This document shows positions 28,406-51,445 of a stretch of DNA of 64,000 bases, piece by piece. The notes beneath the pieces were generated by a model. The model was given only the letters and a program-made list of their open reading frames with translations, was not told where the DNA came from and made no database searches. Source of the DNA: a virus (Duplodnaviria; Caudoviricetes). Both the position numbers and the translations under genes were made by a program. Numbering within the stretch: position 1 is the first letter of the stretch; each line of letters opens with the position of its first letter. Where the stretch lies: positions 1-64,000 of the IMG/VR virus record IMGVR_UViG_3300020049_007105; one strand, 5' to 3'.

Positions 28406-29240
28406 AATAAAGTGAAAGACAGTTCCACGTATCGGCCCAAGCGTTCACGCGTGGTGGGTACCACTCTCCGACGCTCCATGTGTCAAGGGCTCTGTGGTGT
28501 ATTTTGCAGTCGGCGCCAGCCGATCTGCTGTTTGAGCGTAGCGAGTACGAGGGCGTAGCCCGAGGGGTTCGTAGCCGCAGGCCGAACCCGTGTCAGTAAC
28601 AGTTAGGAGACAAGGATCAGGAGAGACAGAACAAGAACTAAGCAGGAACCTACGTCAAGCGCAGTGTGTGTTTAGGTAGTACAACCCCGGATTCCGATGG
28701 TTTATTCCAACTAATTCAAATTCTTTCTGTGACGTGGGTCACAATCTCGAAATCGACCCCGGTCTGTACGCCAGCTTGCTCTTTGATCTGGCCAGCAAGG
28801 TCAGGGTCAGTCAGTGTCCAGATGAACTGAATTCCTTGCCAGTACAGCACTGTGACGAACGACACATCAGTAATTTGAAATAACGGGAATAAAGTGACGG
28901 GATTCGGTGTTTTACTACTTATTACATCCACACGCTCGACGTATGTTCCCACACAATATTACTCTCCTGACTTTACTGCCTCTCCTAACTCTTACTGTAT
29001 GGGTTGCGGCTGCGCCTAGCAACCCCTCGGGCTGACGCCCTCGTCCCCTCCCCGGGTCGGCTGGCGCCGACCGGGGAATTGAATAAAGAACAACGCAATG
29101 GAACGCCTGCACTGCGACGACCGGGACTCAGCGGTGCGAACCTACAGCCGGTGTCCACTTACGAGAGACGTGGTGACTGGTCACAACTACAGACGCCACC
29201 CACGATGGGGGCTAAGCATGGAACTGTCTTTCACTTTATT
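28406..29240. repeat. ~835-bp degenerate inverted duplication, putative bidirectional replication origin
   Basis: At least eight nested reverse-complement blocks, including a perfect 22-mer at 28406-28427/29219-29240; lies at the coding-strand switch. Confidence 0.8.
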
Positions 29241-30957: not shown

Positions 30958-31100
30958 ACGCTTTGACGCACGACGAGAAGAAGATGAAAGCCGTGGAGTT
31001 CTTGGAGGACGAGATGCTTGCTGGGGCTTTCATTAAGCTCGCACAGGAGGCTGCCAGCTTCAGGGTCCCACTGGACTTCTTGGTGGGAAGGCTCTGGTAA
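30954..31100 (+). CDS. 48-aa hypothetical protein (not in the ORF track)
   Basis: GTG overlaps the upstream TGA, GAGG RBS, and the ORF fills the gap to terL. Confidence 0.5.
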   Translation: MNALTHDEKKMKAVEFLEDEMLAGAFIKLAQEAASFRVPLDFLVGRLW

Positions 31101-31104
31101 GACA

Positions 31105-33192
31105 ATGATTGAGCGTCCTACTGAAGAAGAAGCTTGTTTGGTAGCAATCCTCCAAGACCACTCTGGGCTTGATCAGGCTGAGTTCATGTGGGTGGATAGG
31201 TCCGACATGGAGACTGGTGCTGACGCCTGTTGGCGTGCATGGCCCTTCCAGTACAGCTGGTGGCGCTGTAAGGACCCTAAGCAGATCGAGCAGGGGGCTC
31301 GGTGCTTGGCTGAGGGCACGCCTGTAATGTACCGTACAGGCCCCACAGAGCCGTGGCAGTGGAGCCCGATCGAGGACATTGAGCCTGGCGCTTGGGTGCT
31401 CACCCATACTGGCAACTCTAAACAGGTCATTGCTGTTCACGATAACGGTGTCGAACCGACTGTGAGCGTAAGTCTGTTTAATGGTATTCGCATCCGATGC
31501 ACCCCTACCCACAAGTTCTACACGAAGGATGGGGCAGAGGTTGGCTGGAAAGACCCATTGAACTGGGACCGCCATACGAAGGTTCGGGTGTATATTAACG
31601 GTGAGTGGTCCTGGGAGAATGTTCGGACAATTGCCGAAACCCCTGACTCTTGCCGGGTTTATGACCTAGAGGTCGAGGATGACCATAGCTATGTCGCCAG
31701 TGGGATTGTGGTTCACAACTCTATTGGCAAGTCGCTGGGGATTAAGGCACGAGCCACGGCTTTTCCTTTCTGCTACCCAGGTCAGGAGATGGTTCTTACT
31801 GCACCAGAAAACAAGCATCTTTTGACGATTACTGACTCGATTGAAACTGCGTATAGTTCAAGCAAGATTCTTTCGTCCATGCTTAAGTCTGGAGTTCAGG
31901 GGATTACCCACCGGCCGTTCAAGATGAACTTCAAGAATGGTGCTCGTATTCTCGGTGCGACTCCGAACACTGACGGCTCTGGTGTGAAGGGTTTGCACCC
32001 TATCGTTCTGGAGCAGGATGAGGCTTCTGACTACCCCCATAGGGGCTGGATTGAGCTTATCGAGACTGTTAAGCAGACCAGTGGCAGGAGCGAATGGCGG
32101 GCACACGGCGTAACCAGGGGTGTTCAGGATAGATTCTGGAGCTACACTCAGCCCGACTCGGGTTGGAAGGTTCACCACATTTCAGCAATTCACCGCCCCA
32201 CTTGGACGGACGAAGAGCGTCAGTCAAAGATCAGGGACTATGGCGGTGGTGCTAGTGACCCTGAGTATTTGAGAAACGTGATGGGTCTTCACGGTAACGC
32301 TGTGAACCCTATCTTCATTAAGTCTCGTCTAGCGGAGTGCTTTAACTTCGACATGGACTCCAAGCACAACAAGGACGAGTACCAACACTATACGATTACG
32401 AGTGAGATGATCGAGGATGCTGGTGGTATCGACTTGTTTCTTGACCTGCCCTACTCACACAAGAAGTACAAGAATGTGTGGATCGGAATGGACGTTGGCT
32501 ACACTGAGGACCCAACTGAGATTTTGTGCTTCGCTGAGGTTCTAAAGGCAGGTAAGGTCACCCTGAAGTTGGTTAGCCGGTTCTCTCTTCAGAGGAATAC
32601 GGTTAACGATCAGAGTACTGCCATGATGTACCTGTTAGACTTCTATGACACGAAGGCTTTCGGTATGGACGGTACTGGTAACGGCCTGCCGCTGTATCAG
32701 AGTGTCATCCATACGGCCAGCACGGACCCTTACTACAGGGCTCAGGGCTATCAGCATATGATCCAGAGCTACAACTTCTCTCAGAAGATCATGATCGGCT
32801 ATAAGGATACTGCCCTTGAAGTGGAGTCTGAGAATCCGCTGGCTGACGACTTGAAGGACGTTGAGTACGACGAAGAAATCTTTAGGCCGGTTCTTGAGTA
32901 TAGCACAGATGTGCTCAGATACCTGGTGGACAACACGCTGCTCCAGATGCCCGGTGACAATGATGTCTACAACCACTTCCAGGCCCAGACCTACATGATC
33001 CGCAAGGCTAAGACTGATGAGTATGGCCGTTCAAGAAAGTTCTCTAGCGGTTCTTATCACACTCTGGACGCAGCGAGAATGGCAGCGCTGGCTTGGAGGC
33101 AGGCCAAGATTGCTGAGATTGAAGAGGCTCGTCGCCGTGGCAAGGAGCACGCCTTTGTCCCGGTACTATCCAGAATGACAACCCAGTTCTAA
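31105..33192 (+). CDS. terL: terminase large subunit, intein-containing
   Basis: Spliced Walker A GAR/SIGKS, Walker B LEQDEA, nuclease IGMDVG...DPT, MDGTGNG, HTLDA. Confidence 0.88.
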   Translation: MIERPTEEEACLVAILQDHSGLDQAEFMWVDRSDMETGADACWRAWPFQYSWWRCKDPKQIEQGARCLAEGTPVMYRTGPTEPWQWSPIEDIEPGAWVLTHTGNSKQVIAVHDNGVEPTVSVSLFNGIRIRCTPTHKFYTKDGAEVGWKDPLNWDRHTKVRVYINGEWSWENVRTIAETPDSCRVYDLEVEDDHSYVASGIVVHNSIGKSLGIKARATAFPFCYPGQEMVLTAPENKHLLTITDSIETAYSSSKILSSMLKSGVQGITHRPFKMNFKNGARILGATPNTDGSGVKGLHPIVLEQDEASDYPHRGWIELIETVKQTSGRSEWRAHGVTRGVQDRFWSYTQPDSGWKVHHISAIHRPTWTDEERQSKIRDYGGGASDPEYLRNVMGLHGNAVNPIFIKSRLAECFNFDMDSKHNKDEYQHYTITSEMIEDAGGIDLFLDLPYSHKKYKNVWIGMDVGYTEDPTEILCFAEVLKAGKVTLKLVSRFSLQRNTVNDQSTAMMYLLDFYDTKAFGMDGTGNGLPLYQSVIHTASTDPYYRAQGYQHMIQSYNFSQKIMIGYKDTALEVESENPLADDLKDVEYDEEIFRPVLEYSTDVLRYLVDNTLLQMPGDNDVYNHFQAQTYMIRKAKTDEYGRSRKFSSGSYHTLDAARMAALAWRQAKIAEIEEARRRGKEHAFVPVLSRMTTQF
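31303..31719 (+). mobile_element. 139-aa mini-intein in the TerL Walker A
   Basis: CLAEGT...CTPTHKFY...VYDLEV..HSYVASGIVVHN followed by Ser+1. Confidence 0.92.
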
Positions 33193-35250: not shown

Positions 35251-35301
35251 TATTAAATACCCTAACTCTGCGATATAGAGTCATAGAAAGGGTATCTAAC
35301 T

Positions 35302-36612
35302 ATGGACGAACCTATGCAGAACGCTAGCCTCACGTTTAAGGCTAGTATTCTTAGGCCCGCTGAAGTTGAAAAAGCCAGCTCTTGGTATCACGACCTCGTT
35401 GGTAGTGTGAACCCGACTTTCACTTGGATTGTCGGTACCTACATTGAAGCTGATGTAGCCAACGAGAATAAGCAGATGTTCCCGATGGTCGAGATCGAGA
35501 AGGCTGCTCACACGCTTCTGAACAGCCCGGTGAACATCAACCACAATAGTGCGCCTATGGGTACTTTTATTGGCTCGCAACTTGTCTTCCCTGAGGACAG
35601 TGGTCTGCCAGCGAAGCTTGAGGTTGTTTCCGCTATTTGGCCCAATGTTGATCCGGTTGCTTACCGTAAGGTGGAGCAGGCCAACGAAGAGGGTTCGCTG
35701 TATTACAGCATGGAGAACCTTCCTCGCTTCGGGAACTTTGTTTACCCAGATGGCGCAAGTGAGATTCTTGAACGTGACCCGTACAAGGCATTTCACGTCT
35801 CCTATCCAGCCCAGTATGAGGCTGCCTCTCAGGTGGAGTTCATTGATGTCACCTTTACTGGTGGCGCACTGATTGTTCCGCCTATCACTCCCGGTCTTTC
35901 TCGTGCCCGTGCGGGTATTGGAACGACCTTTACTGAGGCTGCTTCTGCGATTGTACTCGAAAGTGAAACCATGCCTGAAGATAGTGACGGGACAGTAGTG
36001 AAAGAAACCGCAGAAGATTCCGATATACCTAAAGAATCAACAAATGTCGAAGCTGACGTATTGGATGTAGCTTCTAAAGAAGGAGATAAAGTGCCTGATA
36101 TTACTATGACCGATGTGCCAGACGACGTTCAGACTCAGATCGTTGAGGCGTTCTTGAGCGCCCACGCTGTGGACGAGCAGGCTGAAGCCTTGAAGGCTGA
36201 TATTGCCGCACTTCAGACCAAGCTTGATCAGGCTGAGGCTGCTAAGGCTTCTGCTGAGTCTAAGGTTTCGGATGTTGCTAACTATCTGGAAGCCGTTAAG
36301 ACCGAGGCCGATGAGGCTGCCGCTCTTGAGGCTCGCAAGTCTGACCGAGTTGCTGAGATTGCGAAGCTGGTGACTTTCTCTGACGAGTATGTTACTGAGA
36401 ACGCTGATCGCTGGGCTGCTCAGTCGGAAGATGACTTCGCTGCGACCCTTTCGGTCATTGCTGAAGCTCATGGTACCAAGACCGAGGTTTCGGAGGACGA
36501 TGAGTCTACCGAGTCCGAGAAGGCCGCTCTGCATGTGACCCTGAACACCAGCTCGCCTGGCGCTAAGGACACCTTCCGAGATGCCCTCAAGTCCCACCTC
36601 ATCAACTCATAA
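35302..36612 (+). CDS. prohead protease-scaffold fusion
   Basis: N-terminal N.NKQ.F...PVNINH...YSME protease-like block; acidic Ala-rich coiled-coil C-terminus. Confidence 0.7.
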   Translation: MDEPMQNASLTFKASILRPAEVEKASSWYHDLVGSVNPTFTWIVGTYIEADVANENKQMFPMVEIEKAAHTLLNSPVNINHNSAPMGTFIGSQLVFPEDSGLPAKLEVVSAIWPNVDPVAYRKVEQANEEGSLYYSMENLPRFGNFVYPDGASEILERDPYKAFHVSYPAQYEAASQVEFIDVTFTGGALIVPPITPGLSRARAGIGTTFTEAASAIVLESETMPEDSDGTVVKETAEDSDIPKESTNVEADVLDVASKEGDKVPDITMTDVPDDVQTQIVEAFLSAHAVDEQAEALKADIAALQTKLDQAEAAKASAESKVSDVANYLEAVKTEADEAAALEARKSDRVAEIAKLVTFSDEYVTENADRWAAQSEDDFAATLSVIAEAHGTKTEVSEDDESTESEKAALHVTLNTSSPGAKDTFRDALKSHLINS

Positions 36613-36642
36613 TTAGATAGACCTAGGAAAGGTATAAAGACA

Positions 36643-37152
36643 ATGGCAGATGTTACGCTAAAGAGCGCAGAGTACCGAATCGCCCCCCAGATTGAGAACA
36701 TCGACGGGCGTCACGTTTCGGGCGCTGCATTTCGTCGGCTCGTTCCTGTTAAGGCTAGCACGACTGTGGAGGACGGCTTTGAGCGCTCTTCGGTTGTAGC
36801 GGCTACGGCGGCTACGGGTCCTGTGCGAGGCATGAACGGTCTCGTTGACTACGTGAAGCTTGGCCAGTCCGGCTTCGAGGACTTCCGTGGCGGTTTCGAC
36901 CGTGAAACTATTCCTGCGGGCGTGCCCGTGCAGATGGTTCAGGGTTCCGAGATGAAGGTTGCTTATCGCAACTCGGATGACGTGAAGATGGTTGCTGGAG
37001 TGACCGCTGTTGGCGCACTTGTGACCCCTCAGACTTCCCCCGACGACACTGCTGGCTACTTCGTTGTGACTTCCACTGCGGCTGAAGCCTGGGGTGTCAT
37101 TACCAACATTTCGGCTGACGGCGACATTGAAGTTCGCTTCAGCAACCTCTAA
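36643..37152 (+). CDS. head decoration/cement protein
   Basis: Position between scaffold and capsid, strong AGGAAAGG RBS, beta-rich composition. Confidence 0.55.
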   Translation: MADVTLKSAEYRIAPQIENIDGRHVSGAAFRRLVPVKASTTVEDGFERSSVVAATAATGPVRGMNGLVDYVKLGQSGFEDFRGGFDRETIPAGVPVQMVQGSEMKVAYRNSDDVKMVAGVTAVGALVTPQTSPDDTAGYFVVTSTAAEAWGVITNISADGDIEVRFSNL

Positions 37153-37183
37153 GAGAACCTAATTAGGAAAGGGTAATAAACCT

Positions 37184-38086
37184 ATGTCAGATTACACGCT
37201 AGCAGATATTGAAGCCGCAAAGGCGAAGCTTAACGCCGAGATGCGGGAGCGTTGGGACGATGCGTCGTTCCGCCGTGAATTCGCTGCTGACCTGGCCGAG
37301 AGCATTTGGCTCGGCTATTCGGATCAGTCGCTGGTAGACCTCGTTGCGGACGTTAGCCGAGTTACGCTTGACGCAAAGGTGTACGTTCGTGAGCTGAAGG
37401 GTCTTCGGGCTTTCTGGACCGCCCGTGGTGGTTTCATCGAGCAGAGCGAGCTCAGCCAGGATGAGTACGAACTGGTGCCCGATAGCCTGGGTGTCCGTGT
37501 CCGTGAGCATGAGGAGGCTATTGCGACTCGCATTGCCGAGACCGCTGTGGACCTCAAGACCCAGGGTGTGAAGCAGATTGACCTTGGTGTCAACCAGCGC
37601 TTCCTGAAGATGCTTCAGGCCGCTACGCCTTCGAACGATGCGAACGACAACTACACGTTGGTCGCTGGTGTGACGCTTGATAGCGTCCGTGACGCCCTCA
37701 TGAAGGTGGCTGACGCTACCGAGGGTTCGAAGATTTCCATTATCGGTCGCTCGACCATGGTCCATCAGGTCATGAATGCGGTCCAGGATGGTAGCTTCTT
37801 CACTCCGACGACCAACGAGAACCTGATTCAGCGTGGCCAGATGGGTACCTTTAACGGCGCTCAGCTTATCACGGTGAAGAACGTTCGTGGCGGCGCTCAG
37901 ACTATCCCGAACAACGAGCTGTATGTTGTGGCTGAGGATGCGGCTAAGGTCGCCTTCTTCGGTGACATCAAGGCCAAGGAGCGGGTTGATGACAACTGGT
38001 ACTGGCATTGGGTGACTCGCCTGGATGTTGGTATGCTGCTCCACCACACTGATCGTGTGGAGCGGATTGTTGACTCCAGCCTGTAA
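37184..38086 (+). CDS. major capsid protein
   Basis: 300 aa, strong RBS, biased codons, followed by a terminator; synteny. Confidence 0.75.
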   Translation: MSDYTLADIEAAKAKLNAEMRERWDDASFRREFAADLAESIWLGYSDQSLVDLVADVSRVTLDAKVYVRELKGLRAFWTARGGFIEQSELSQDEYELVPDSLGVRVREHEEAIATRIAETAVDLKTQGVKQIDLGVNQRFLKMLQAATPSNDANDNYTLVAGVTLDSVRDALMKVADATEGSKISIIGRSTMVHQVMNAVQDGSFFTPTTNENLIQRGQMGTFNGAQLITVKNVRGGAQTIPNNELYVVAEDAAKVAFFGDIKAKERVDDNWYWHWVTRLDVGMLLHHTDRVERIVDSSL

Positions 38087-38159
38087 AGGCAGTTCCCCGG
38101 ACCCGCTAACGCCTTAGGGCGTGCGGCCGGGGCAGTAGTACCCTTTCCTTAGGTAGATG

Positions 38160-38187
38160 GTAGCCGGGTCCTTCGGGGCTCGGCTAC
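38160..38187 (+). terminator. head-operon terminator
   Basis: GTAGCCGGGTCC-TTCG-GGGCTCGGCTAC followed by TTCTCGTT. Confidence 0.75.
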
Positions 38188-38229
38188 TTCTCGTTAGGGG
38201 CTTGACTGACCCACGGCAACCTGCTACGC

Positions 38230-40185
38230 TTGGACTCTCAACCACCGAAGGAGAGCCCTATGGCTGGACAGATGATGACCCCGAACCCCGACCTTGCAAG
38301 TCGTCTCGCCAGCGTGAGATATCTGGACGTAGACGCAAATAGGGCAACCGCTCTGGGCCAGTTGGACGCAGCGGAGCGGAAGGTTCTTTTGAGGGCGGCT
38401 AGGGGTGACGGTACCCCTGTGCCTGTGGAGGACGCTTTTGAGCTAATATACTCGTTCGGGGCTACGACTGAGTTTGTAGCGAGAATTGATGACCCAACTT
38501 TGATCGAAGACCTTTTCTCGTGGGTTGAGGAGTGCAAGGGGCCACCGATTGACGAGATCATCATTGCTCTCACCGAAGGGGTCGAGGCTTTAGTGAAAGA
38601 GCACCTTGGTGACCTCCCTGACACTCAGTTGGAGGCGATCTACGATACTTGCTATAATGCTAGCATTAGTAAGGTTCCTACTTCTGCGGATGACACAACG
38701 GCAGTAGTTATGTTTCTTGCCCGCAATGCTCGTTGGAGCCAGCCATGACTCGCCGTATTGTTTCCTGCGTCGAGTCTGACAAGCTGATTGCTGATTCACT
38801 TAGTGTCGTCGGTGGGCACCACAACTACATGAAGGGTAATCCAGATTTTACTGATCCTCGTGGTCGAGCTGAGACCGTAACCATCTGGGAGACTGCTGAT
38901 GGTGAGTGGTTGACGAACACCCTAGATGCTGATGGTTGCACTCATTATGTTGAGCCCGCCCCCCTTAATTTTAGCACTATGTCTGATGCTGAAATTGTAG
39001 GTCATGTTAAAGAGGCTGACATTGAGGGACATATTGAAACTGATTGCCACCCAGAGTATGGGTCCAGCCAACCAGGGCATGTGTATGTCTATGAGGACGG
39101 CACGGTGTCTGGTCAAGATAATGGCAACGCAGATATTCAGGTTTCCGTGTGGGTTAACACCATTGATGAAGACACATCTACTATTGAAGTCACTGATGAC
39201 ATTGAGAGGTTTGTGTGAGTGACATTATCCGAACAGCAGAGGAAGCCTGTAGGGCATACAGTCGGGTGCAGAACCGCAATCCTTATGGGCAGCCTCCGGC
39301 TAGGTCGGAACTGGAGGCCACAATGAAATTGATAAGCCCACTGTTGTCGTTGATCGCTGAGGGACGAGTGGTGGTTGAAATTTTACCTGAGTTCTGTTAT
39401 GATTGTTATGGTGACAAAGTTTCGATCTTCATGAAGGGTACCGATGATGAGTGGTGCGAACACTGTCGCCGTTGCCGTGGCACAGGGTTTGAGCCAGAGG
39501 AGGTTGAATAGTGAAGCCTGAGGCAAGCATCCAAGTACACTTGATGTCACTCAGCGAGGATTTACCCGGCTATGAGTGTTCTGGCGATTGTGGTCGCTTC
39601 GGTGGTGTCGTCCCAGGGTGGAAACTGGGGTCTTCATGGGACTGGGTTCCGTGCCCGATTCATCAAGGGCCAGCCCAAGGAGTTTCGCAGTGAAGCCTGA
39701 GACACGACAAGCATTAGCATTAACAGTGATGGATTCCTTGGACTCTACGGAGCCAACAGGGCACATCAGGAAGTGGCTAGACGGTGACAGCTATGCGGAG
39801 TTCGAGGACAGGGCCGGTCTGTTCTGGGTCAGGCTGTTCGAAGGAAATAGTTACACTGGGTGCAACTATTCTTTTGACTCTGAGGGGGCTTTTCTAGATG
39901 CCTTCCACAGTGCTGTAACAGAGCTTAATGAAACAGGCTATGGCAAGCCCATGAGGACCTAGGCGTATGAAACCACCAAACTGGATGCTGTGCTCGAAAT
40001 GTGGGGTCGGTCACGCTGAGTCCCATGTGTTAGACGCAACCTTCGCTGGACCGCAAACCGTCTACACATGTAGTAATGCGCTCTGTGAGGAGTGCTCGGC
40101 GCTGCCATTTACGCAAGACGATATCAATCGGTCCAGGGGTTGCAGAACTTGCATGGGCTTCTTAAGGCAACGCAATCCAATTTAA
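38230..40185 (+). other. block of six small non-structural ORFs inside the morphogenesis region, several with CxxC motifs
   Basis: Tiled ORFs at 38230, 38733, 39215, 39511, 39690 and 39967; CYDC/CRRC, CSGDC, CSKC/CEEC/CRTC. Confidence 0.55.
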
Positions 40186-49989: not shown

Positions 49990-50076
49990 GTCTCGAATAA
50001 CACCAAATACGATATACCTAAGGAACCTACCTGTTAGATGCAGCTAGCACAAATCTATTCTTAGGGAGTATCCTCC

Positions 50077-51282
50077 ATGGCAATTAAGTCCGGCAACATT
50101 ATCCATGATGTGCATGGATTCGTCATCGACCGAGTTCAGAGTGCGGGTGGGTCCATTGATGTCCCTACCACGAAGATTGATGAGCTTGGTAACTACGAGT
50201 CCGTTGCGACCATTCGTGACATTCCTGACCTCCAGTTCAACCTTGAATCCTTCGATGCTTCCACTGAGATTGAGGCTTTGATTTGCGGCTTTGATCCGAC
50301 GACCACCTCTGCGGGCCAGGCGTTTGATTTCCGTAATGCCAAGGAGTTCGGTATCCGTAGCCCGTTCAAGTCGGGTACGACCTTTACTGTTAATCATGGT
50401 GTGATCTTGCCTTGGCTGACTTTGGAGTCTGCTTCGTACAGCTTTGGTCTGGCTGACAATGCTACGCAGACGTTCAACTTCCGTGGCGACTCCATCTTCT
50501 ATGTGCCTGGTTCGCCTCGCTATGAAGAGTTCACTGTTATTGATGAGGGTCCGTACACTCTCACTGATGACCCGGCCATCAAGTTCACTCAGGCTGGCAA
50601 CTCTGTTTACGCCCTGTCGGTTGTGCTTGTGGACAGTGTTACGAAGAACCAGCGTCGTTTGAAGGCTGGCGCTGACTATGCGAGCACGGCTACCACTTTG
50701 ACTTTGACGGCTGACCCGGTTGCCGATTTCGACACGATTCGTGTGTACTACGGCTCGACTGATGCTGACACGTTCAACCAGACTGTTCACCAGGGTGTAT
50801 CTGTCAAGCCTGCTGCGGTTCGCGGCAAGGACATTGATATCTATGTCGCTAACACTGCTGGTACTGTGTGGACCCGCTGGACGAGTGTCCAGTCCTTCTC
50901 GGCTGACTGGTCTGTGAGCCTTGAGAGTGATGAGGAGTTTGGCAACACCGAGCGTGTTTCCTACGGCTACTCCGACACTCCGGCTACGACTGGCTCGATT
51001 GGTGTGAAACCTCGTGACGCCAGCGACCTGTGGGAGAAGCTGAGTGTGATCAGCGGCATTCCTACGACCGACGTGATTGGCACCCAGGCTGCTGTTGCCT
51101 TGCCAGTCCGTGCGGTTGTCCGTGAGCCTAATACGGCCAACGTCATGAAGACTCTCACGATCCCCAAGGCTCGCTTTAAGGTTCCTTCACTGGAGCCTAG
51201 CGTGAACCAGAAGCTTGAGGTCAGCTTTGAGTTTGAGTCTGATGACGGTGTGATGACGGTTACGAAGGGTATGCCCGCCTAA
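50077..51282 (+). CDS. major tail protein
   Basis: 401 aa, IDELGN/EEFGN repeats, biased codons; precedes chaperone and tape measure. Confidence 0.75.
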   Translation: MAIKSGNIIHDVHGFVIDRVQSAGGSIDVPTTKIDELGNYESVATIRDIPDLQFNLESFDASTEIEALICGFDPTTTSAGQAFDFRNAKEFGIRSPFKSGTTFTVNHGVILPWLTLESASYSFGLADNATQTFNFRGDSIFYVPGSPRYEEFTVIDEGPYTLTDDPAIKFTQAGNSVYALSVVLVDSVTKNQRRLKAGADYASTATTLTLTADPVADFDTIRVYYGSTDADTFNQTVHQGVSVKPAAVRGKDIDIYVANTAGTVWTRWTSVQSFSADWSVSLESDEEFGNTERVSYGYSDTPATTGSIGVKPRDASDLWEKLSVISGIPTTDVIGTQAAVALPVRAVVREPNTANVMKTLTIPKARFKVPSLEPSVNQKLEVSFEFESDDGVMTVTKGMPA

Positions 51283-51346
51283 TCACACTCTCCCGTTTGG
51301 GAGAAACATATCTGCCGCCTCCCTCCCTCCTCCTAGCGGCACTTGA

Positions 51347-51387
51347 GAGAGCCTTGCCGGTCTTGTGGTGTGACCGGCAAGGCTCTC
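51347..51387 (+). terminator. major tail terminator
   Basis: 16-bp perfect stem GAGAGCCTTGCCGGTC/GACCGGCAAGGCTCTC followed by GTATTTT. Confidence 0.75.
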
Positions 51388-51445
51388 GTATTTTCGATAT
51401 AGTTTGTAACACCCGTTGTACTGTAACAGAATATTGGAGACATAA

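Follow-up and report, generated by a model that had tools for sequence, protein, structure and literature searches.

The major capsid gene of an uncultured sewage phage is followed by a 3′-UTR block that is an exact antisense copy of the gene's own ribosome-binding site (RBS), and complementarity between the two sites is retained in two distant lineages. By analogy with characterized bacterial elements, this anti-RBS block probably works like the 3′-UTR motif of icaR in Staphylococcus aureus, and possibly like the 3′-UTR-derived small RNAs OppZ and CarZ of Vibrio cholerae. Taking action in cis and in trans together, we regard RNA pairing with the capsid RBS as rather probable. The specific form proposed here, an intramolecular occlusion of the RBS with repression and/or faster decay of the message, is put forward more tentatively, at slightly less than an even chance, and draws on the tested bacterial cases. 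The window, i.e. the whole stretch of DNA that was analyzed, is the initial 64 kb of an IMG/VR virus record of 99.9 kb (50.5% GC), for which no near relatives were found among GenBank phages.

The open reading frame at 37184–38086 on the plus strand (300 aa; TAA stop at 38084–38086) is an HK97-fold major capsid protein. The precomputed family assignment is PF27364, and a comparison with PHROGs returned a weak match (3e-4) to the major head protein family phrog_2522. A profile built from 25 capsid homologues matches the major capsid protein of PDB entry 6wkk at 9e-4, and Foldseek paired the AlphaFold model (pLDDT 82) with dozens of phage capsids of the HK97 fold at a probability of 1.0. The capsid gene is the last gene of a head module encoded on one strand, which consists, in order, of the large terminase gene (31018–33192), a 540-aa gene, a 436-aa gene (35302–36612, plus strand), a 169-aa gene (36643–37152, plus strand) and the capsid gene itself. 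Labels given earlier to two of the upstream head genes, "decoration" and "protease", found no support in Pfam or PHROGs. The capsid gene is separated by a 173-nt spacer from a different module that includes a DnaE-type polymerase.

The capsid RBS, AGGAAAGGGTA (RNA AGGAAAGGGUA; 37165–37175, plus strand), contains the Shine-Dalgarno (SD) core GAAAGG and is located 8–9 nt before the ATG at 37184. Read directly from the sequence, it is, as the sequence-only reading had reported, the exact reverse complement of TACCCTTTCCT (RNA UACCCUUUCCU; 38139–38149, plus strand). This second site is located 53 nt after the capsid stop codon. An extension of this pairing by four base pairs had also been claimed; the helper arms do pair, over 5 bp rather than 4, with the 5′ arm ACCUA (ACCTA in the DNA, 37157–37161) facing UAGGU (TAGGT, 38150–38154). 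Together, the 11-mer at 38139–38149 and UAGGU at 38150–38154 form the full anti-RBS block, UACCCUUUCCUUAGGU (38139–38154, plus strand). The extended duplex is thermodynamically plausible: it comprises 16 bp across a 3-nt bulge (AUU, 37162–37164), with a hybrid ΔG of −21.4 kcal/mol and a net energy of −8.3 kcal/mol after subtraction of the local opening costs. Allowing up to one mismatch, the 11-mer occurs in just two copies in the window, while its 9-mer core occurs at chance frequency, and a genome-wide repeat or start-associated motif was rejected on these grounds. Pairing of the block with the RBS of the downstream gene found no support, as the two do not match and this gene differs between near relatives.

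On the RNA, the anti-RBS block lies about 970 nt from the RBS and beyond the stop codon. When a 1053-nt transcript model was folded with a partition function, the predicted probability of pairing between 37165–37175 and 38139–38149 was about 1.0, in an energy model that favors closure of RNA ends and ignores ribosome traffic. From 37184 to 38139, a site scan found no terminator-like site, and the promoter-like matches that it returned elsewhere were weak. The presence of RBS and anti-RBS on a single transcript, their pairing in vivo and repression or decay as the direction of the effect are inferred. In the centroid structure of the 3′-UTR, the block is single-stranded between two hairpins, in agreement with the earlier description. 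The first is a long irregular GC-rich hairpin (38095–38132, plus strand), located upstream of the block, and the second is a terminator-like hairpin (38155–38191, plus strand) with a 13-bp core and a UUCG loop, followed by a weak U tail, CUUCUCGUU. The latter had been described as a "TTCG terminator"; the strong hairpin is present, but the tail is poor in U and the terminator scan made no call. Rfam covariance models gave no match at E-values up to 1 on either strand of 36500–39000.

The complementarity exceeds what is expected from base composition. Among dinucleotide shuffles of the window 3′-UTR, an 11-nt match was obtained in 0.06% of trials (P 0.0006), and the extended ΔG of −25.4 was reached in 0.03% (P 0.0003). 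A fairer control is a comparison across the whole 99.9-kb genome, in which 153 genes were crudely called and the flank was taken as the 173 nt after each stop codon. The capsid pair is the longest RBS/3′-flank match among these 153 genes, and a 10-mer and a 9-mer were also found. After multiple testing over the 153 genes, significance within this genome alone is borderline, at about 0.05, and the case for the capsid pairing therefore rests on the relatives.

Both blocks are kept in 23 near-identical contigs, mostly from sewage assemblies; these say little, because their coding sequences differ from that of the window by only 2–18 substitutions. One of them (L017) carries an extra C in the anti-RBS block (variant TACCCCTTTCCT). 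In the near relatives (L002–L017), identity to the window holds up to and including the hairpin that ends the capsid 3′-UTR, after which the sequences diverge completely (about 38192–38260), such that the gene downstream of the 3′-UTR encodes 187–189 aa in these relatives, compared to 162 aa in the window. Therefore, the 3′-UTR has been inherited as part of the capsid cassette. Several short Logan contigs (the end of L184, L185 and L186) stop exactly at GTACCC inside the anti-RBS block (window position 38144), and one of them runs on into an Illumina adapter. These stops likely reflect a branch of the de Bruijn assembly graph created with the L017 variant, a simpler explanation than RNA 3′ ends, which had also been considered; they may otherwise mark an abundant nucleic-acid end at 38144.

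More informative are two lineages, L012 and L013, whose capsids are 55–56% identical to that of the window and which are the only such lineages, besides the window, in 5.8 billion protein clusters. Searches for further members of this clade returned none by protein search, none in GTDB genomes (where one distant actinobacterial MAG matched), and none through the DNA pattern of the RBS region in IMG/VR (where five unrelated phages matched). The capsid of L012 shares 55% identity with that of the window, and its 3′-UTR cannot be aligned to that of the window apart from the anti-RBS block. There, GGUUGAUAGCCUUUCCUUCG pairs with UUAAGGAAAGGUUAUAAACC in a helix of 13+4+2 bp that spans from the SD to position −3 of the ATG, with a ΔG of −24.8 and a shuffle P of about 0.0007. 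The helix includes lineage-specific sequence outside the shared SD core (UUAUAAACC against GGUUGAUAG), and one difference between the two lineages preserves the pair, with G:C in the window replaced by U·G in L012. In a transcript model of about 1050 nt, the RBS:anti-RBS helix of L012 also has a predicted probability of about 1.0.

In L013 (capsid 56% identical), the capsid RBS is changed to GGAGAGAG, and the 3′-UTR carries CTCTCTCC (RNA CUCUCUCC) in a single-stranded stretch between two hairpins. This match of 8 nt is marginal, with a P of 0.024 for a 17-nt RBS window and 0.125 for a 30-nt window, and the predicted pairing probability in a transcript model of about 1050 nt is approximately 0.2. 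The two upstream head genes of L013 have kept RBSs of the AAGGAAAGG type, and the 3′-UTR block matches the divergent RBS of the capsid gene alone. When partners were exchanged between lineages, the L013 RBS formed only 5 nt with the UTRs of the window and L012 (−12.7), and the RBSs of the window and L012 formed 6 nt with the L013 UTR (−15 to −16.4); own-pair energies range from −17 to −25, compared to −12.7 to −16.4 for the cross-lineage pairs. Once opening costs are deducted, the pairings of the window, L012 and L013 each retain −8 to −10 kcal/mol; the anti-RBS blocks lie outside the terminator stems in all three, and the summed ΔG of the three lineages is 6 sd beyond the shuffles (z-score −6). 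The expectation that relatives should preserve the complementarity is thus borne out by a longer helix in L012 and by a different sequence pair in L013, with the qualification that L013 is marginal and that the lineages number three. Overall, the comparative sequence data favor the view that RNA pairing of the capsid RBS with the 3′-UTR of the gene is under selection.

The more distant capsid relatives have to be read with care. About 100 non-redundant loci with capsids 35–43% identical to that of the window often show RBS/3′-UTR complementarity of 8–9 nt, and approximately 12% of them reach at least 8 nt via terminator arms. In every case examined, the match is formed by the C-rich descending arm of a terminator and its U tail, opposite a G-rich SD such as AAAGGGGGG. 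These matches were consequently set aside as support for covariation. They show that background matches are more common than shuffles suggest and that G-rich SDs inflate them. No separate anti-RBS element was found among the approximately 100 distant loci, and the element is therefore restricted to the clade.

We propose that the 3′-UTR of the capsid mRNA acts as a dedicated anti-RBS element of the icaR kind. Once the whole gene has been transcribed, the exposed UACCCUUUCCUUAGGU block would pair with the capsid SD region (37157–37175) upstream on the same RNA, occluding the RBS in competition with binding of the 30S subunit. By analogy with tested bacterial cases, occlusion would lower translation and shorten the life of those capsid messages that lack active initiation, and the RBS:anti-RBS duplex may be a target for a double-strand-specific RNase. 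Because the polymerase reaches the anti-RBS only past the stop codon, about 970 nt after the RBS, a new message could be translated freely during its own transcription and could be closed later, whenever initiation slackens. Capsid synthesis would thus limit itself through a brake built into the message. It is counter-intuitive that the gene with the heaviest expression should carry a brake, which counts against the proposal, as do the restriction to three independent lineages and the genome-wide significance of only about 0.05.

Long-distance pairings of this general type are known from the fold-back inhibition element (fbi) of hok mRNA and from the RBS pairings of phages MS2 and Qβ, in which the ribosome-binding region is kept closed until another event opens it. 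The hok mRNA is activated by 3′ trimming, whereas in MS2 the partner forms part of an upstream coding region, and translation opens it. Unlike in MS2, the partner of the capsid RBS is located beyond the stop codon, out of reach of translating ribosomes. A close parallel in sequence features is icaR of S. aureus, in which a UCCCCUG motif in the 3′-UTR pairs with the SD of the same mRNA, blocks formation of the initiation complex and creates a substrate for RNase III (PMC3868564). As in icaR, the capsid 3′-UTR contains a pyrimidine-rich anti-SD motif complementary to the SD of its own mRNA about 1 kb away, and this motif is kept in relatives, if only marginally in L013 and across three lineages. 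In contrast to icaR, the element belongs to a phage structural gene that is the last cistron of a head operon, such that the equivalent of the 5′-UTR is an intercistronic RBS. Moreover, the duplex, here predicted from sequence, comprises 11–19 bp compared to the 7-nt icaR motif, and the 3′-UTR is about 110 nt long compared to approximately 390 nt in icaR.

In Bacillus subtilis, 8-mers complementary to the RBS, even when placed in a 3′-UTR about 830 nt downstream, lower mRNA level and translation in a context-dependent manner; their pairing with the RBS inhibits initiation and favors decay, and a depletion of such sequences was found in natural genes (Gill et al. 2025 preprint, PMC12697547). 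Those 8-mers are synthetic insertions, whereas the phage has kept a long anti-RBS in a gene for which high expression is expected, implying selection for a brake rather than against one. The hbs mRNA of B. subtilis is described as having a 5′/3′-UTR interaction through which the action of ribonucleases is controlled and the stability of the mRNA is linked to its translation (PMC5737220). The capsid mRNA would resemble hbs in that the two ends of one highly expressed mRNA base-pair, with ribonuclease access coupled to translation status; in the capsid case, the SD itself would be the paired segment.

OppZ and CarZ of V. cholerae are autoregulatory 3′-UTR-derived sRNAs that are released by RNase E, depend on Hfq and act in trans (PMC7398697). 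They share with the capsid 3′-UTR an element complementary to an RBS within the same operon, which in OppZ and CarZ results in post-transcriptional negative feedback. A corresponding mode of action for the capsid 3′-UTR is unlikely in our judgment: a fragment of about 60–110 nt, consisting of hairpin, seed and terminal hairpin, would be released by endonucleolytic processing or resist decay and would repress other capsid transcripts, pairing more weakly with the RBSs of the 436-aa and 169-aa genes. The same complementarity and conservation would serve such a fragment equally well. Its architecture, in which an unpaired C/U-rich seed immediately precedes a stable terminal hairpin, resembles that of 3′-UTR-derived sRNAs, and OppZ and CarZ set the precedent for repression of the sRNA's own operon. 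Its terminal hairpin is a strong 13-bp UUCG structure; however, the tail CUUCUCGUU, too U-poor to be called by the terminator scan, is ill suited to Hfq-type sRNAs, and intramolecular pairing is kinetically favored over bimolecular pairing. A closed-loop mRNA and a 3′-UTR-derived sRNA had both been suggested at the outset. The underlying RBS:3′-UTR pairing is backed by L012 and L013 and, at the level of sequence, fits both.

Targets in trans were a further point of that suggestion, which had the block also pairing in part with the RBSs of two upstream head genes. This is correct for the window: the RBS GAAAGGGTA of the 436-aa gene (35286–35294, plus strand) is complementary over 9 nt (duplex ΔG −17.1), and the RBS AGGAAAGGTA of the 169-aa gene (36624–36633, plus strand; coordinates derived from the string upstream of the gene start at 36643) pairs with one bulge (duplex ΔG −19.1). 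Both are possible secondary targets, and these partial matches, of 9–10 nt in the window and likewise in L012, favor action in trans. However, the L013 block matches the capsid RBS only, while the other head genes keep AAGGAAAGG. This counts against the trans reading and weakens the earlier idea of an element that balances all head proteins, as well as that of a head-gene regulon. The three consecutive head-module genes have in common an extended RBS motif, TAG(G)AAAGG(G)TA (35283–35296, 36622–36635 and 37163–37176), which sets them apart from the majority of the phage's genes, whose RBSs are of the GGAGG type; the head genes of L012 and L013 have similar motifs (AAGGAAAGG).

Two other explanations dispense with RNA pairing altogether. 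The pair could have no function and be a chance match in the window, the L012 block being kept for another reason, for example as a pyrimidine-rich binding site for a protein or RNase or as part of a 3′-end structure, and the L013 match being the coincidental meeting of a low-complexity GA-rich RBS with a CU-rich UTR. The borderline genome-wide significance, the L013 P of 0.02–0.13, the small number of lineages and the tendency of purine-rich SDs and pyrimidine-rich 3′ regions to match above random, as in the approximately 12% of distant loci, all fit this explanation. We nevertheless consider it somewhat unlikely, as the L012 pairing extends past the shared core into lineage-specific sequence (UUAUAAACC against GGUUGAUAG), an extension not expected of a motif conserved for other reasons than pairing. 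The window and L012 each independently give shuffle P values no higher than 0.0007, the z-score summed over the lineages is −6, and the blocks of all three lineages avoid the terminator stems. Alternatively, the blocks could act as DNA, since they form an inverted repeat that brackets the capsid gene, as might be bound by a late regulator or a recombinase, or the 3′ block could be the RBS of a small antisense ORF. The occurrence of a similar motif before three consecutive head genes agrees with a DNA-binding site. The 3′ copy in L013, however, follows the divergent capsid RBS and not the motif common to the other head genes, which is unexpected for a common DNA-binding protein, and the blocks coincide exactly with the Shine-Dalgarno sequence. 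As for an antisense ORF, raised earlier as a competing explanation, no ATG, GTG or TTG occurs 3–15 nt after the minus-strand block in any of the three lineages (window, L012 and L013), where the minus strand offers only CTG or ATC, followed by 5–9 codons. These DNA-level and antisense explanations are jointly very improbable.

In the literature searched, an element of the proposed kind was not found described for the capsid gene of a dsDNA phage. Phage late-gene dosage is usually ascribed to promoter strength, RBS strength and mRNA-stabilizing hairpins. If the pairing acts as proposed, the most abundant virion protein would be under self-limiting control, and the two short blocks would provide a compact, testable case for 5′–3′ communication within mRNAs of bacteria and phages. 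The capsid case also runs against the depletion of anti-SD-like sequences in expressed genes (PMC12697547).

A second late 3′-UTR shows a comparable arrangement. The 401-aa gene at 50077–51282 (plus strand; RBS 50063–50076), a putative major tail gene that has no Pfam or PHROG match, is located two genes before a 2231-aa ORF of tape-measure size. Its 3′-UTR (51283–51445, plus strand) folds into a hairpin (51313–51341, loop 51319–51335), followed by a 16-bp terminator. The 17-nt loop, CUCCCUCCCUCCUCCUA, is composed entirely of pyrimidines and contains the complement of the gene's own AGGGAG RBS as well as the canonical CCUCCU; additionally, a CCUCC in the spacer of the gene can fold back on its own GGAG. 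Four near relatives carry an identical loop, which is missing from 25 distant homologue loci of the 401-aa gene. In the plus-strand late module, intergenic pyrimidine tracts in the sense direction reach 10 nt or more at just two places, the 3′-UTRs of the capsid and 401-aa genes. The two longest late 3′-UTRs each present an exposed pyrimidine block matched to the RBS of their own gene. That the phage lineage uses 3′-UTR anti-Shine-Dalgarno modules generally, allocating ribosomes among its late genes, is a speculative and distinctly unlikely generalization. If true, abundant mRNA tails, acting in cis or after their release as fragments, would determine when and in what proportions the structural proteins are made, and self-targeting 3′-UTRs would represent a layer of control over phage late genes that is widespread but has so far gone undescribed.

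In the genome-wide control, two other crudely called genes on the minus strand, at about 28716–28952 and 78186–78416 of the genome, show RBS/3′-flank complementarity of 9–10 nt (TCAGGAGAG and CGGTAGCGGT). Just 3′ of the terminal hairpin of the capsid gene, a promoter-like sequence (TTGACT-17 nt-TACGCT) is found at 38202–38230, and the near relatives have TTGCGT-17-TACACT at the same place, despite the changed sequence in this region. Judging from its sequence, this site may be the start of the next transcription unit, which consists of small genes and the DnaE-type polymerase.
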